DNA of 28,685 nt, from the IMG/VR virus record IMGVR_UViG_3300027283_000007, positions 1 to 28,685 of that record, one strand, 5' to 3'. Below, piece by piece: positions 1 through 26,045 of the stretch; the stretch's first letter is position 1, and every line of letters begins with the position of its first letter. A program made the translations under genes and the position numbers. Under the pieces are notes generated by a model, which saw only the letters and a program-made list of their open reading frames with translations, searched no databases and had not been told where the DNA came from. The stretch comes from a virus. Taxonomy: Duplodnaviria; Caudoviricetes.

Positions 1-1208
1 CATACGAGCGTAACGGTGATGTCGGATGCGCTAATGGTCGGCACCTGATCAATACCCACTTCCACGCTGTTTTGATTGGCTGAACTAGTGCCCAGGTCAA
101 TATCAAGCACTCTTGTATAAGTGCTCGTCGCACTGACGCCGCCATAAAACCGGCCGGCAAAAAGGGTTGAGCCGATACGCGCTCGGCTGCCGCCATCTGT
201 GCCATTAAACGCGGCGATAATGGCATCTTTGACCAGATCCGCGATATTGGACGGCAAGTTCGGATTGTTCTGAATCTGCACCGAAAACAAAATGGGCAGC
301 GCGTCCGGACGTTGAAACTTAATCGAATAGGATGGATAGGGGTAATCGTATCCGCTCGCATCCTCTACGGTTTCGGTGGTATTGCCGTTCATGTCGCAAC
401 CCGGTGACTTTTTAGTAAAAATCGCATGGGCAATATCCGCCGAAAGACCTCCGACCGCCGCAACATAAATGGAGTGTTCCGCTAATTCGTAATCAGTCGA
501 GCCGACCGTGACCGGGGCGCCGGTGAAATTCTCATGGACATAGGCATCAATCACGCCATCGGTATTCAGCACGGCGGCATAGACGGACGCCAGCGAACCC
601 TGAGCATTGAGCGCGACGGACGCACGGCGCCGAGCCTCATAATCCGCGCGGGTTTCTACATCGCGGCCCACCGTGCCGGCGTCAGCATTAGTAATAGAGT
701 CCCAGCCCGGTATCGCTTGATAAATCGTGTTGAGCGCACCAATGGGGCAGGCAATAGGGCCGGTGGTCGTGCAGACGAATGAAAGTTCTATACTGCCTCC
801 TGTCGGTATCGTGCCGGCCTGCGTGCAGGTATAGATATTGCCTGATGTGTCCTTGGCCTTGGCGCCGACCGGGATAACGACGCCGGCCAGCCCGGTACAG
901 GTTGCTTGCACGGCGGTCCCTTGTGCGGCGATGCGGTCAATAAAGTAAATGCGCCCGATAGCGTCCTGCCATTGGCCTTCCGCGTAATCCGGATTAACCT
1001 GATTGGCAACATAGGCAATCTGGCTGTTTTTGTCGGCGATGATCGCGGCCAGCGTGGACGCAAGTTGTCCCTGTGGCGTTTCCAGCGAGAGGTTAAGATT
1101 GCCGCCGAATGCCGTGTTATTGTCGTCTAAGACGCCGGCTAAAATGTCGGTCTCGGCCGGGACCGTGACGCCGGTTTGGGTAAATTCCAGTTCTGGTACG
1201 CTTGTCAT
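1..1208 (-). CDS. Baseplate J-like (Mu gp47-type) wedge protein; stop codon falls at the window edge
   Basis: Not in the ORF track. ATG at 1208 overlaps the TAA of the upstream gene. I read the N-terminus MTSVPELEFTQTGVTVPAETDILAGVLDDNNTAFGGNLNLSLETPQGQLA and, in the same frame, the C-terminus SASDITVTLV followed by TG at the edge (about 402 aa). The ETPQGQLA motif and the position after a gp46-like gene fit baseplate J. Confidence 0.88.
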   Translation of the reverse strand, partial: MTSVPELEFTQTGVTVPAETDILAGVLDDNNTAFGGNLNLSLETPQGQLASTLAAIIADKNSQIAYVANQVNPDYAEGQWQDAIGRIYFIDRIAAQGTAVQATCTGLAGVVIPVGAKAKDTSGNIYTCTQAGTIPTGGSIELSFVCTTTGPIACPIGALNTIYQAIPGWDSITNADAGTVGRDVETRADYEARRRASVALNAQGSLASVYAAVLNTDGVIDAYVHENFTGAPVTVGSTDYELAEHSIYVAAVGGLSADIAHAIFTKKSPGCDMNGNTTETVEDASGYDYPYPSYSIKFQRPDALPILFSVQIQNNPNLPSNIADLVKDAIIAAFNGTDGGSRARIGSTLFAGRFYGGVSATSTYTRVLDIDLGTSSANQNSVEVGIDQVPTISASDITVTLV

Positions 1209-1558
1209 TAAAAGGTAACCCGGTTGATGGCGCCTGTTGTGTCGATAACTTCAACATCGCCGGTTAATTGCCTGTCTTTCAATCCTAAATTGACCACGCG
1301 AGCCTGTACCACATTCGGCACGGTTAAGGCCGCCGCCACGAGCCGCGCCTTGATCAGCGATTCAGGCGGGTATTTGCCGAGTATTTCTGAAAAGTAGGGG
1401 ACACCTGGCGCCGTGTTGTACCAAAGCTCGCCCTTGAACAATTTGATCGCACTGGCCACATCCTGAGCAATTGAGTAAGGGTGTGACGCCATGGCGATAT
1501 TGCCGGACGTGTCGAGTACCAAATCCCATTCCACGGTATCTAAAAGAAGCGTGTTCAT
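1208..1558 (-). CDS. Baseplate wedge subunit (gp25/GpW/Mu gp46-like)
   Basis: 116 aa with WDLVLDTSGNIA...IAQDVASAIKLFKGELWYNT.PGVPY; lies between the spike and baseplate J genes. Confidence 0.8.
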   Translation of the reverse strand: MNTLLLDTVEWDLVLDTSGNIAMASHPYSIAQDVASAIKLFKGELWYNTAPGVPYFSEILGKYPPESLIKARLVAAALTVPNVVQARVVNLGLKDRQLTGDVEVIDTTGAINRVTF

Positions 1559-8548: not shown

Positions 8549-9289
8549 TTACGGCATGTCAGGCCAATAGCGATTGGATTTCATGACATTCTCTAAATAT
8601 GGTATTACCTGAATGTTATTCTCAACGTGAAGTCCGCACACTAATTCTGAATTTATCGGAACGATATGATCAACATGCCACTCTAATCCGGTCAGTTTTG
8701 TCCTTAATCTAGCTAAGTCATAAGCCTCTTCTATAAAAAATTCATTAGCCCATGGCACCGAAGCATTTTGCATCAAGATTCTTCTGGTTCTATACCAAAA
8801 ACTGACCTTATCGGGATTGCCTTGCCTGTACTTTTGACGTATAGCCTTTACTTTTCCCTTGTTTTTAATCTTCCATTCTTTTTTTACAGCATAGTATCTA
8901 TCTTTGTTTAAAGAGTAAGCAATTCTGGCGCAATATCTTCTTCTTTCCTTTCTAATTTCAGTTAGAAACAACTCTTTCCACAACAGAACATGAGACTCAT
9001 GAAGCGATTCAAGAAAAGATTTTTTCTTGCTTCCCAGTCTTAATTTCCGTTGTTGCGATATTTTTTCTTTATTCCAATAATAGTGCCTGTTTGAATCCGC
9101 TCTTAATTTTTCTCTGTTTTCGTCGGCATACTGACGTCGACTATCCTTTCTTCTTGCATGGACTTCTCTCTGATAAGCTGGGTAGCATGTTTTGCATTTG
9201 TTGCCAAACCCGTCTTTTCTGCTCTTGTCTTTGTTGAATTGAGATACGTGCTTTTGTTCTTTGCATATGCTGCAAGTTTTTTGATTCAT
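8549..9289 (-). CDS. Free-standing HNH homing endonuclease
   Basis: N-terminal CxxC...CxxC, basic helical linker, C-terminal WHVDHIVP...CGLHVENNIQVIP...N..KSN; AT-rich relative to its neighbours. Confidence 0.88.
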   Translation of the reverse strand: MNQKTCSICKEQKHVSQFNKDKSRKDGFGNKCKTCYPAYQREVHARRKDSRRQYADENREKLRADSNRHYYWNKEKISQQRKLRLGSKKKSFLESLHESHVLLWKELFLTEIRKERRRYCARIAYSLNKDRYYAVKKEWKIKNKGKVKAIRQKYRQGNPDKVSFWYRTRRILMQNASVPWANEFFIEEAYDLARLRTKLTGLEWHVDHIVPINSELVCGLHVENNIQVIPYLENVMKSNRYWPDMP

Positions 9290-9391
9290 TTCTGATTCCT
9301 TATATCAGACCTTATTGAATGGTGTGCGGAAAGACAGTAAGGTGCTGTCTTTGTCGGTCGGCCAACCTATCCGCACAATGCAATTATATCA
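9290..9391 (-). promoter_or_regulatory. Extended -10 promoter plus structured RNA leader (copy A) of the HNH gene
   Basis: TG-A-TATAAT (TATAAT at 9388-9383). Closing stem TGTGCGGA/TCCGCACA encloses GGTT-GGCC-GACC and AAGACAG-CACCTTA-CTGTCTT. Two TAAGG sites follow before the ATG. Confidence 0.75.
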
Positions 9392-18328: not shown

Positions 18329-19752
18329 CGGGCGGTTCGTTTTAGGGTTTCGGCGGAAATCTGTAGAGGTTTAGCCAGCATGGAATCGACGTAAGCCATG
18401 ATGAAACTGTCACCCAAATTGGGTGAATCAATCTCGCGTTTAGCCAGATCCTTCTTGCTCTCGACCTTTACCCGGCCAGCCAGGTCATAATCCCGTTTAG
18501 GCGTGCAGAGCTCGTCTATTAACTGGTCAAGATGCGGCATGGATGAGTCGATAAAGATCATTTCATCATCGCGGAACTGTTGCCCGTTCTTGACTGCGTT
18601 ATAAGTGTTGCGCAATCGGTCAGCCACCAGCCACCACGCTTGAGCCTTGATGTTCGAGAAGAAGTCCTTGTTCTTAATCTCAGTGCCGGGATATTTAGCA
18701 TCGGGCTTATAGACGGCGCCACCGGCAAAAAACTTGTTATGCATGACGCGCTCATGCTGCAAAACACCAATATTCAGCTCATTGAACTTGGCGCCTGATG
18801 TAGCCCCGACGCCGATAGCATCATAGATAATGGATGCTTTACGTTCTCTGGCTGAATGCCATACCCGCGTACAGGACTTAAGCAACTCGTCCTCTTTGGC
18901 TTTCCACAGATCAGCCCAGACAGCAAGGGAGCCATGCGCGTATATCTGAGCGCAAGAATCCTCGCCGGCGTCGGCCACATCGAACCCGATGCGCCTAGAG
19001 CCTGTGACCTCGATGCCGAGCGTTTTATGCGCATCAATCGCGGACATCAAGTGAGAACGCCGAATGATTGCTTCGTCGTCGTCGTCTTTCGGGACGCCCA
19101 GATAAATATGGTTGTACTCATCCTCATCTTCGGCTTTAGCATCTGCAATAACCTTTCGCATTGTAGATGAAAGATAAGGGTTTTCATCGTAATTTATCTT
19201 TCTTGTTATCGCCCCTTCAGGGGGATTTGTTACAAAGCGACGATATACCCAGTCTGTTGAGAATCGCGGATTAAATACGATGAATATCTTTGAGTTCTCG
19301 GCTCGGATTGTTGGCATAATGATTCGCCATTGTTCCTCGCTTAAATCCTCAGCTTCTTCTATCCATAATATTTCTACACCAGCAATACCTTTGATCTCAT
19401 TAAGGTTTCGCTGAATGCCTAAAAAGGTAAAATTCGATCCGGTTCTTTTGTGTACTATTGAGTTTTCAGTTATCTTGAACTCGTCGCGCAATCCTTTTGC
19501 GTCAATGCACTCTTCTATTACTGTCTTGACTGAATCTGATATGCGGTTTTGGAACTGCCTGACGCATAAAAAGTTTATCTTATGCGTGCAGGCAAGGAAT
19601 ACACAGAAACCGGCTGTATGATACGTCTTGCTTGATGCTCTGCCACCGTACAAGACGTAATAACGATGATTTGATTCGTAAAAACCTTTGAGATTAGGAT
19701 TTAATAAAGGGATGCTTTTAACCGGCTTGTAAATATTCCCATTTATATCCAT
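18325..19752 (-). CDS. terL: Terminase large subunit (PBSX family)
   Basis: Walker A YGGRASSKT, Walker B ILWIEEAE, FNP coupling motif, and nuclease motifs GFDVA and SPNLGDS. Confidence 0.95.
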   Translation of the reverse strand: MDINGNIYKPVKSIPLLNPNLKGFYESNHRYYVLYGGRASSKTYHTAGFCVFLACTHKINFLCVRQFQNRISDSVKTVIEECIDAKGLRDEFKITENSIVHKRTGSNFTFLGIQRNLNEIKGIAGVEILWIEEAEDLSEEQWRIIMPTIRAENSKIFIVFNPRFSTDWVYRRFVTNPPEGAITRKINYDENPYLSSTMRKVIADAKAEDEDEYNHIYLGVPKDDDDEAIIRRSHLMSAIDAHKTLGIEVTGSRRIGFDVADAGEDSCAQIYAHGSLAVWADLWKAKEDELLKSCTRVWHSARERKASIIYDAIGVGATSGAKFNELNIGVLQHERVMHNKFFAGGAVYKPDAKYPGTEIKNKDFFSNIKAQAWWLVADRLRNTYNAVKNGQQFRDDEMIFIDSSMPHLDQLIDELCTPKRDYDLAGRVKVESKKDLAKREIDSPNLGDSFIMAYVDSMLAKPLQISAETLKRTAR

Positions 19753-20476
19753 AAGACTTGTTTCTCTTTCCCGTCAGGCAAAACCAAATGCCTGTTCTTG
19801 TCGCCTTACTAGACCCGTTATCCCTTAACCATACTGCGGCATTTTCAATGCTATCAAATACAATACCGTTATCAATGCACTTAACTTCTCTTTTGTTTGG
19901 CTGGCTGTCAGACATTTTTTGTCTTGCTTCGGCGCTTCTCTTCTTGCCTCTGTGCCAATCAGCTACTTTCTTGATTGTTTCAGGGCTTGGCTTTCTTCCT
20001 TTGCGAACAATAGACATTTTTAACCTTGTCTCTGCGCTGGCCTTTGTTCCTCTATGTGATGCAGCCGTTCTTTCAACGGCATCCCTAGGCTGTTTCCTGC
20101 CTCTATTTGCAGCGGCTCTTTTCTGAACTAATTCCAAGGGCTGCTTCTTTCCCTTGTGCGCTCTTCTAATAGCCTCTCTTGTTTCAGGCGAATGTCTGTG
20201 CCCGGTTATGCCATCGCCGCCATTTGTGCGATTGCACAAAACAACCCCTTCCTCTTTAAGAAATTCTATTGTTTCGACTTCAATATCAAATGCTTCTTGC
20301 TCTGTCAGTCCTGAAAACAGTATTTCAATATTAAGGCCATGCTTTTTGTATGTACGATTCCAAAGCTCACTTCTTCCGTGAGTATTAGAGGCTCTTCTAC
20401 CTCTACCTTTGCCGACATAAAAAGGGTAATTGTTGCTAGCCTTCCGATGAAGGTAGACATAAAAATCATTTTTCAT
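19718..20476 (-). CDS. GIY-YIG-like homing endonuclease with NUMOD3 repeats
   Basis: FYVYLH...FYVGKG...R, N.T.GGDG, repeated HSPETREAI/SAETRLKMS/SAEARQKMS units, and a C-terminal NUMOD1-like HTH; overlaps the terL start by 35 nt. Confidence 0.88.
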   Translation of the reverse strand: MKNDFYVYLHRKASNNYPFYVGKGRGRRASNTHGRSELWNRTYKKHGLNIEILFSGLTEQEAFDIEVETIEFLKEEGVVLCNRTNGGDGITGHRHSPETREAIRRAHKGKKQPLELVQKRAAANRGRKQPRDAVERTAASHRGTKASAETRLKMSIVRKGRKPSPETIKKVADWHRGKKRSAEARQKMSDSQPNKREVKCIDNGIVFDSIENAAVWLRDNGSSKATRTGIWFCLTGKRNKSYGYKWEYLQAG

Positions 20477-20576
20477 TTTGAATCCCTGAACATGGGTGAA
20501 CTATTGAGTTGGTGCGGTGCTGGCTGTTCAGTTCCAGACGGGGCAATTACTCCCTCACCGCATGAATATTATAGCA
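20477..20576 (-). promoter_or_regulatory. Extended -10 promoter plus structured RNA leader (copy B) of the GIY-YIG gene
   Basis: TG-C-TATAAT (TATAAT at 20573-20568). Closing stem TGCGGTG/CACCGCA encloses GGGAGT-AATT-GCCCC and CTGG-AACTGAACAG-CCAG. GTTCA and TGTTCAG sites follow before the ATG. Confidence 0.72.
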
Positions 20577-20587
20577 GAACTTGCGTA

Positions 20588-21052
20588 TCAGTTATAGAAG
20601 TCGCTCAGCGTTGGAATGCTAGATTGCGAGTTATTGATCTGAATGGCCGTATCAGGTTGTTTGCCTAATACCGTTTCCTTGCCCTTGATGATGGTATCGG
20701 CACGGGCCTTGAAGTCCTGCTGCCCTTCGCACGGCGCTCTCAACGCTTCTTGAACATTCTGGACAGCAGCATCAGTGAAAAACTGAATGTGTTTTGTTCG
20801 CTCGTCTACCGCTGTTTCAATCGCATTTGCAATGTGAGCAGACTGCTCACGATGAGTCGCTAGCCCTTGCTTGTATTGAACTCCAGCGCTCACAATAGCG
20901 CTCACGTCCTGCTCAACACCTTTTGTATATTTGGCGACCAGTCCTGCGCTAACCTTAAACTTTTTGGCCAGTTCTCGCTGGCTATATTCGCCCGTCCTCC
21001 AGGCCGAAACAATCTTATCAACCGTCTCTTTAGGCGTTGCTTTCCCTGCCAT
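20588..21052 (-). CDS. terS: Probable terminase small subunit
   Basis: N-terminal HTH (YSQRELAKKFKVSAGLV), helical middle, TAIQINN tail; upstream of terL. Confidence 0.75.
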   Translation of the reverse strand: MAGKATPKETVDKIVSAWRTGEYSQRELAKKFKVSAGLVAKYTKGVEQDVSAIVSAGVQYKQGLATHREQSAHIANAIETAVDERTKHIQFFTDAAVQNVQEALRAPCEGQQDFKARADTIIKGKETVLGKQPDTAIQINNSQSSIPTLSDFYN

Positions 21053-24978: not shown

Positions 24979-25416
24979 TTATTTTCCTCTCATGCCAAAG
25001 CACATCATCGCCGCATCTCGGCTGTGCGAATTCGTCACGCCTTGCCAGCCGGTGACGCGCTTGAAATAAGCGGCGTCAACCTTGCCACGTGGATGCTGCT
25101 TGATTACTCGTATGCCATGATTCTCCAGATATTCGACAATCAGTTCAGCTTTGTCAATTACAGTGCCTACATTAACCGCGGTCCGGTCCTTAGCTCCTGG
25201 TGTCTTAGCCTTTTTGTGCCAAACTGCCTTGGTCGTCGGCAATTCAACAACAGCGGCCAACTCATACTTACCCGGCATCGAATGCGCTATCAGTACATCA
25301 ATTGCAGCGATAGCGCCCCAGAATGTCGTTGAGTAGACGTTATCAAACTGGCCAGTGTCTGTGTCGTAGATTGCGAGGCCGGTTGATTTGCCGGCGTCTA
25401 TGCCAATCACTTTCAT
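24979..25416 (-). CDS. RuvC/RNase H-fold nuclease (Holliday junction resolvase-like)
   Basis: MKVIGIDAGKSTGLA, VVE and HSRDAA acidic catalytic pattern. Confidence 0.75.
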   Translation of the reverse strand: MKVIGIDAGKSTGLAIYDTDTGQFDNVYSTTFWGAIAAIDVLIAHSMPGKYELAAVVELPTTKAVWHKKAKTPGAKDRTAVNVGTVIDKAELIVEYLENHGIRVIKQHPRGKVDAAYFKRVTGWQGVTNSHSRDAAMMCFGMRGK

Positions 25417-26045
25417 AGCGACCTGCCTATAACTCTGACTGGAGTTGTCATTGTTTTTTCAATACTCCAACCGTATTTTAATCTGGCTAACAATGTATCT
25501 GGATCAACGCCTAACTCGCTTGCCCATGCCGAAACACATTGAACTTTTCCATTAAACTCGATATTCCTTGTTCTGGTAGTGTTTCGCATCTGCTCTTGAC
25601 GGCTCGCCCACTTGCAATTACCTGGCTCATAGTTTTTGTCGTTATCAATTCTTTCGATAGACATTCCGACTTCGCTTTCGCCCATGTCACTTAAAAAGTT
25701 ATCAAAATTATGCCAACGTTCACAAACCATAATCCCCCTTCCTCCATACGTTTTATAGCGCTTATTATTCTTGTTATAACACCGCTTCTTCATATCCTCC
25801 CATGCTCTATAAGTCTTAGTTCCAGTCATTCCATGAGTTTTTCTTCTCCTACTGGCGCCCTCTCTTTGAAAGCATCCGCATGACGATGTATTTCCACTTC
25901 TTAAATCATAACCAATGACAATTTTTCTATTTCCACAATCGCAAACACAATCCCATGTAACAGAATTTTTTCTAGTCCTTCCATGTTCAGAAACAACTGT
26001 CAACCTTCCAAACTTCTTTCCTGTTAAATCTATTTTTGCACGCAT
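25413..26045 (-). CDS. HNH homing endonuclease (IDLTG-FGRLTV type)
   Basis: CVCDCG, SCGC, YGGRGI.VCERW and SIERIDNDKNYEPGNCKWA..EQ..N motifs; AT-rich. Confidence 0.85.
   Translation of the reverse strand: MRAKIDLTGKKFGRLTVVSEHGRTRKNSVTWDCVCDCGNRKIVIGYDLRSGNTSSCGCFQREGASRRRKTHGMTGTKTYRAWEDMKKRCYNKNNKRYKTYGGRGIMVCERWHNFDNFLSDMGESEVGMSIERIDNDKNYEPGNCKWASRQEQMRNTTRTRNIEFNGKVQCVSAWASELGVDPDTLLARLKYGWSIEKTMTTPVRVIGRSL

Follow-up and report, generated by a model that had tools for sequence, protein, structure and literature searches.

The window analysed here, the whole of a 28.7-kb phage record judged 58% complete by CheckV, carries its packaging and structural genes on the minus strand. An ORF ending at 20588, read as terS, is separated by 111 nt from a 252-aa ORF, and the leader that is the subject of this work (copy B, Table 1) lies within that interval. 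The 252-aa product is a free-standing GIY-YIG/NUMOD3 endonuclease that matched the homing endonuclease family phrog_314 with an E-value of 1.6e-27, and its gene overlaps the start of terL by 35 nt. Residues Y6, Y20, R28, E66 and N82, which we take to be the GIY-YIG catalytic set by analogy with I-TevI, were invariant across 13 homologues. When 28 loci of terL relatives were compared, 4 of them being left out for want of usable upstream sequence, a terS-like ORF was seen by eye to abut terL directly in 20 of the 24 informative loci. The GIY-YIG cassette between terS and terL is therefore likely an insertion. The genes for the two closest relatives of the protein (51% and 48% identity) also lie just ahead of terL, and no such leader was found upstream of either at this same terS/terL site, so that the gene can exist without a leader. 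A search of species genomes with the single GIY-YIG protein as query gave no match, and one 280-nt contig covers only the middle of the gene.

The elements of copy B, including the CCC-ATGTTCA-GGG hairpin, had been listed in an earlier note on this DNA, and each was found where it had been placed. The extended −10-like box begins 12 nt past the terS stop and ends 5 nt ahead of P1; its pattern, TGnTATAAT, occurs only three times in the window. The predicted three-way junction is followed by CCA..TCAATA and by two short sites complementary to the P3 loop. The final two bases of site 2 are the first two of a Shine-Dalgarno-like AGGG, which lies 7 nt before the ATG (20476). An AUG inside the P4 loop opens a six-codon frame (window 20493-20473, minus strand) whose stop overlaps the nuclease start (ATGA); this frame has no evident Shine-Dalgarno sequence and was not seen by eye as a feature common to related leaders.

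Table 1. Features of the two leaders and of the genes behind them, in window positions
Feature	Position	Strand	Details
GIY-YIG/NUMOD3 endonuclease gene	19718..20476	-	252 aa, free-standing; between terS and terL; Pfam NUMOD3
Copy B leader	20576-20477	-	read directly from sequence
B extended −10-like box	20568..20576	-	TGCTATAAT (TGnTATAAT); predicted leader promoter, from sequence
B three-way junction (P1, P2, P3)	20513..20562	-	predicted; minimum-energy and centroid folds agree
B P1	20562-20556 / 20519-20513	-	TGCGGTG / CACCGCA, 7 bp
B P2	20554-20552 / 20543-20541	-	GGG / CCC, GUAA loop
B P3 guide loop	20524..20533	-	10 nt, AACTGAACAG, as RNA AACUGAACAG; stem CTGG/CCAG (4 bp)
B site 1	20497..20501	-	GUUCA, single-stranded linker; 5 bp with P3 loop, about −5.2 kcal/mol
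B site 2	20486..20492	-	UGUUCAG; 7 bp with P3 loop, about −9.6 kcal/mol
B P4 hairpin	20484..20496	-	CCC-AUGUUCA-GGG; Shine-Dalgarno-like sequence in 3′ arm
HNH/EndoVII-like endonuclease gene	8549..9289	-	246 aa, behind copy A; phrog_1035, E 1e-17
Copy A leader	9290..9391	-	TGATATAAT; canonical int-alpA-like; 11.2 kb from B
A P3 loop	9344-9338	-	CACCUUA
A site 1	9314-9309	-	UAAGGU
A site 2	9302-9298	-	UAAGG
A P4 hairpin	9308-9292	-	CTGAT/ATCAG, holding site 2

When the 40 nt downstream were shuffled 20,000 times, about 0.07% of the shuffles scored as high as B itself, with its 7+5 Watson-Crick loop/site pairs (p = 0.0007). A sequence-agnostic descriptor, written post hoc once the elements were known, matched only copies A and B in the window, and gave 1 match in 6 locally shuffled windows. 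The fold of B alone was not significant (z = −0.2 to −1.6, and −0.8 to −1.6 for the junction itself), and P4 alone (3 bp, −3.2 kcal/mol) was no better than shuffles (z = 0.05, p = 0.3).

Two neighbouring features of the window were also noted. The third TGnTATAAT stands at the head of a different leader (27586-27507, minus strand), which precedes a Rha-family gene and has one strong hairpin (z = −2.6); on the opposite strand there was a sub-threshold match to the PtaRNA1 antisense RNA (28.4 bits, cut-off 47). A third endonuclease-like ORF (25413-26045, minus strand), recognized by eye and without a Pfam match, overlaps the start of the next gene and has no such leader.

Copies A and B and the int-alpA motif

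Copy A carries the int-alpA junction consensus and has a significant fold (z = −3.1 to −3.2). It gave no match to the Rfam int-alpA model (RF02996; cut-off 35.8 bits). With an HMM for which both window copies had been withheld, it scored 46.6 bits (E = 5e-14); it is homologous to leaders that do pass the Rfam cut-off. On sequence grounds, copy A and its relatives belong with int-alpA.

Such leaders were met unsought upstream of protein relatives, at 4 of the 48 loci of HNH relatives, at 2 of 10 loci of GIY-YIG relatives and again at 7 of 100 further GIY-YIG loci (113 fetched). A pattern combining the promoter box with the conserved core, and containing no loop or site letters, found 69 loci with 45 distinct leaders. 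Seventeen of 20 leaders tested matched RF02996, 14 of them above the cut-off, and 4 of 6 protein-found loci did so, one above it. The portable RNA family proposed in the earlier note exists, but is one already catalogued as int-alpA. One related leader matched 62 GenBank phage records, mostly from Gammaproteobacteria. Model R1, which was built with copy A, was applied to the window together with 12 protein-found loci and 35 of the 45 distinct leaders from the pattern search, and yielded 47 matches (L085 was missed). In an alignment fitted to the model, the three stems co-varied, with 12 of 14 pairs changed on both sides and with G-U substitutions among the changes. The motifs TAGG and CCGA were invariant in 30 leaders of the A type, an invariance partly fixed by the search pattern.

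Variation at the junction also showed some order by eye. Where GACAA preceded P3, P1 was mostly topped by A-U and P3 was mostly followed by a linker of 1 nt; where GAAAA did, the linker was CU and the top of P1 mostly C-G. Such a correlation could reflect a tertiary junction contact. A different-looking three-way-junction leader, which R1 misses, precedes an HNH relative in locus L046 (about 1170-1272, plus strand), with a loop complementary, by eye, to one site near the start codon.

The cargo of 28 pattern-found leaders, some of their genes being cut at locus ends, was compared with protein families. Nineteen matched endonuclease families, some by an N-terminal segment only; the remainder comprised one primosomal-protein family, two unnamed families and six genes without a match. 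The idea of nuclease cassettes as the cargo therefore describes most of these leaders, but not all. Near-identical leaders were found ahead of different genes (L097 and L098; L070 and L083), which bears out the portability that had been claimed for the leader. By eye, two int-alpA-like leaders precede other kinds of gene, a terminase-ATPase-like ORF (L397, G039:C1:10420-10484, minus strand) and a Rha-like ORF (L396, G035:C1:12899-12962, plus strand), from which it would seem that core phage genes may use the leader too.

Copy B stood apart from all the models. It gave no Rfam match to RF02996 at E-values up to 1 or 10, and the 35.8-bit gathering cut-off was not reached. With filters off, R1, which scored copy A at 52 bits, did not list B at E-values up to 10, and the HMM built without the window copies missed it at E-values up to 20. 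Model R2, built from all 47 matches, aligned only P1 of B (3.3 bits, E = 2.4). The conserved int-alpA junction (UAG after P1, GA(A/C)AA before P3, CU or U after P3) was not found in B, whose tight junction, lacking UAG and GA(A/C)AA, reads G-AGG and CGU with no linker. By architecture, B does conform to the family: its predicted three-way junction has a P1 of GCGG/CCGC, P2 is short, and P3 carries a loop of about 9 nt. It also shows the defining complementarity of that loop to two sites, of which the second falls in a hairpin ahead of the start codon. Promoter spacing, P1 letters, loop length, site positions and P4 are all common to B and the family, and other members of its nuclease family carry canonical leaders.

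The description of B as a second copy of A holds for the layout only, there being no detectable sequence homology (best score 3.3 bits). Nor could the A-to-B change serve, as had been proposed, as compensatory evidence within one genome, since B is unalignable beyond P1; the evidence for covariation comes from other genomes. B would work like int-alpA, and its descent from that motif is plausible; the core could be an int-alpA that has diverged strongly, or else a sibling scaffold. B is an atypical and so far unique variant with the same logic, and only its atypical core is new.

Searches for relatives of B were extended to several collections. In viral contigs, degenerate B-type patterns gave 0 matches in one search, 68 with further patterns, chance-like on inspection, and 30 with another, none of which had a B-type fold. 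The single match to a B-type pattern in metagenomes was an identical copy of the same phage, and in species genomes there were 2 and 12 matches, none combining promoter, fold and sites. Comparison of B with phages and plasmids by blastn returned short chance matches only. No independent B-type relative was found by the sequence-agnostic descriptor in 822 kb of fetched loci, or by eye upstream of the genes in 125 GIY-YIG relative loci. Loci L013 and L206 hold the same phage sequence in two other public assemblies, and are not independent evidence. In L285 (666-721, plus strand) a canonical core is joined to a long P2 with AGUAAUU as in P2 of B, a possible link between B and the family. A variant leader in L378 (from 2236, plus strand), which R1 misses and the descriptor finds with a two-site score of 14, has a junction that deviates from the consensus less than that of B.

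Co-variation of the P3 loop with two downstream sites

The set for covariation analysis consisted of the 47 R1 matches and B, without L078, which was too short, and was reduced to 27 leaders sharing no loop 6-mer; B was kept and A was dropped as redundant. Two non-overlapping sites, with at least 5+5 Watson-Crick bp, were found for 18 of 27 cognate pairings versus 9 of 702 non-cognate ones. The summed loop/site score was 290 for the cognate pairings versus 190 ± 7, and none of 20,000 permutations came up to 290; the cognate partner was strictly best in 17 of 27 leaders and best or tied in 25. Allowing G-U pairs weakened the contrast, though it held (21/27 versus 120/702). In six copies found later, the best cognate site was at least 5 bp in every case; the strict 5+5 test was passed by one, and by all six with G-U pairs. 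The loop had been claimed in the earlier note to change in concert with both targets, and homologues without consistent complementarity were named there as evidence to the contrary; co-variation with both sites was found, and the homologues did not show such a lack.

The arrangement of the sites was also regular. Measured from the end of P1, median positions were +8 for site 1 and +21 for site 2, with site 2 ending 7 nt before the ATG; the corresponding values for B were +9 to +11, +20 and 9 nt. Mean site pairings in the family were 6.0 and 4.7 bp, versus 7+5 for B. At least three loop bases were common to both sites in 27 of 28 leaders. A stem of at least 4 bp enclosed site 2 in all 28 leaders versus 18.6 expected, and a lenient test for P4 was weak (27/28 versus 22.7 expected). 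Anti-Shine-Dalgarno-like CCU, UCC or CUCC was present in 15 of 27 loops. The proposition that site 2 is always the stronger was rejected: the two sites were equally strong on average, and site 1 was the stronger in 17 of 28 leaders.

Loop sequences were diverse, with 40 different loop windows among 47 leaders. Five of 47 records held two or three R1-detectable copies, all with different loops, many records being fragments. Cross-pairing between A and B amounted to 3+2 and 4+4 bp, versus 6+5 and 7+5 bp for the cognate pairs, and none of 16 same-genome cross pairs, A/B included, passed the 5+5 test. At the background rate of 9/702, about 0.2 passes would be expected among 16 pairs, so the result neither shows nor excludes selected orthogonality. 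Cross-talk between cassettes, which the specificity codes had been thought to prevent, matters only if the RNA acts in trans.

Other parts of the leader were compared with expectation. A 4-nt palindrome was present in the P2 loop in 16 of 24 distinct P2s versus 9.1 expected (p = 0.003, ignoring relatedness), that of B being AAUU. CCA stood close behind P1 in 7 of 28 leaders versus 2.8 expected, and A and B each have it. Only 6 of 28 leaders, A and B not among them, had a U-rich run behind P1; a shared terminator for the family was accordingly rejected.

Candidate modes of action

Our preferred reading, to which we would give about even chances, is that the B leader damps translation of the GIY-YIG endonuclease in cis, through the P3 loop and the two sites. 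The leader would be transcribed from its own extended −10 promoter and would fold as a three-way junction, the P3 loop of which could pair with only one of the sites at any moment. The linker, with site 1, would be made first, and a loop paired there would leave a weak P4 for the ribosome to open, giving a leaky ON state. A loop-loop contact with site 2 would instead lock P4 and the edge of the Shine-Dalgarno sequence, giving an OFF state, and the balance of the two helices would keep the output of a DNA-cutting protein low. For B the OFF helix is predicted to be the stronger (−9.6 versus −5.2 kcal/mol).

Several observations count against such a damper. The fold and P4 of B were not significant on their own, and the two closest GIY-YIG relatives do without the leader. 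Lacking the junction bases that are invariant in the family, B may fold or act differently, or may be decaying. Because site 2 is not generally the stronger (site 1 was stronger in 17/28), a simple one-way timer cannot account for every member, and copy A is among the exceptions. The great diversity of loops (40/47) is also harder to explain for a purely cis contact.

That diversity is one of the points in favour of control in trans or by dimers, in the manner of the C4 and CI antisense RNAs, which we regard as possible but rather unlikely. Here the loop of a second leader would let both sites be occupied, self-repression would depend on concentration, and the variable loop would serve cassettes or phages as an immunity code towards one another. 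That a single loop has two sites of equal strength, and that all 16 same-genome cross pairs fail, is what such control would lead one to expect; in C4, a 4-nt change separates P1 from P7, according to the available text of PMC5320573. The excess of P2 palindromes (16/24 versus 9.1) lends weak support, the lineages not being independent, and CCA behind P1 (7/28 versus 2.8) is a weak hint of release by RNase P or in a tRNA-like manner. Against this, zero cross pairs is also the chance expectation (9/702), and only 5 of 47 records, many of them fragments, are multi-copy by R1. CCA was absent from 21 of 28 leaders, and 22 of 28 had no terminator-like U-rich run, which speaks against a small RNA that is terminated and free. 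Intermolecular pairing would, moreover, be expected to need longer helices than the 5-7 bp that one loop provides. A stronger proposition, which we consider unlikely, is that B is the first example of a second scaffold of a widespread reprogrammable riboregulator. One guide loop would read both tandem sites, these would be filled together only when two leader RNAs meet, with self-complementary P2 loops helping, and each cassette would count its own transcripts under a private code unreadable by other cassettes or superinfecting phages.

The position of the sites could also be read as serving activation. Sites abut or invade the P4 arms; in B the 5′ arm directly adjoins site 1, and the top G of the 3′ arm belongs to site 2. 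Loop pairing might in this way strain or open P4, free the Shine-Dalgarno sequence and switch translation on; the short IsrK RNA does so for its own message, according to the available part of PMC4825925. Site 2 nevertheless overlaps or adjoins the Shine-Dalgarno sequence, 15 of 27 loops contain an anti-Shine-Dalgarno-like sequence, so that pairing would block the ribosome, and the cargo consists mostly of genes that need a low level. Activation is thus improbable.

It is equally doubtful that B arose by decay of an int-alpA leader, with regulation lost and the pairings left as remnants. The lost junction consensus, the score of 3.3 bits, the weak z-scores for folding and the want of an independent relative would all fit decay, but B retains an intact promoter box, all three stems and the full 7+5 bp of pairing with its two sites, and its nuclease has lost none of the invariant residues. 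Damage confined to the junction is not what random decay would produce. A reading in which the three short boxes act as DNA, forming an operator bound by the encoded nuclease or by some other protein, is very improbable: site 1 is repeated directly in site 2 and inverted in the loop, beside a promoter, but the stems co-vary with G-U substitutions, G-U pairs lengthen the loop-site helices, and near-identical leaders precede different proteins.

Known RNAs and implications

The int-alpA motif was reportedly first described by Weinberg et al. in 2017. It is typed in Rfam as 'Gene; sRNA'. Like B, it is a three-way junction of the same size, with P1 of GCGG/CCGC, ahead of a gene; B differs in having no Rfam match and no UAG or GA(A/C)AA junction. 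The Rfam consensus itself has a CCUU loop and a downstream UAAGG, though in its printed form it does not extend to the second site or P4, and loop-site pairing is not drawn. In the literature, covered largely outside subscription journals, we found no description of loop-site pairing, only incidental mention of 'int-alpA', no mention of 'RF02996' and no test of int-alpA function. The portion of the main text of the 2017 paper (PMC5737381) available to us does not name int-alpA. The supplement of the 2017 work may mention pairing of the loop with the Shine-Dalgarno sequence already, which would bear on novelty.

Among other phage RNAs, C4 (P1/P7) and the CI RNA of satellite P4 resemble B in being three-stem RNAs whose unpaired bases pair near a downstream ribosome-binding site, with small changes giving separate specificities, as set out in the available parts of PMC5320573 and PMC4825925. 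In those accounts, C4 pairs through two unpaired regions, a′ and b′, and acts in trans once RNase P has released it, and CI RNA has targets upstream and downstream. The leaders described here differ from C4 in that one loop faces two downstream sites using the same bases (27/28), and in that only 5 nt separate the promoter box from P1. Membership of C4 (RF01695) was rejected, as neither A, B nor any of 26 related loci matched its model.

Homing endonucleases of the T4 type are held down by hairpins over the ribosome site, as described in the available text of PMC2988022. According to the same text, I-TevI, I-TevII, I-TevIII, segB and Aeh1 mobE resemble B in having RNA structure over the Shine-Dalgarno sequence of a GIY-YIG or HNH gene, and an internal promoter; these structures are single hairpins, avoided by a late promoter that starts inside the structure. 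In B, by contrast, the predicted promoter precedes the entire structure, and the variable guide loop would come from a branched domain of its own.

An orphan Rfam motif, int-alpA, gains a concrete candidate mechanism that is cheap to test, in which a variable loop is matched by two co-varying sites at the translation start. B, a single example, suggests that the loop/two-site logic can persist without the conserved junction, in which case current models would undercount the class. If they act in trans, the loop codes would constitute a natural library of small orthogonal translation switches. The leader also suggests how selfish endonuclease cassettes may bring their own promoter and brake into late operons such as terS-terL.
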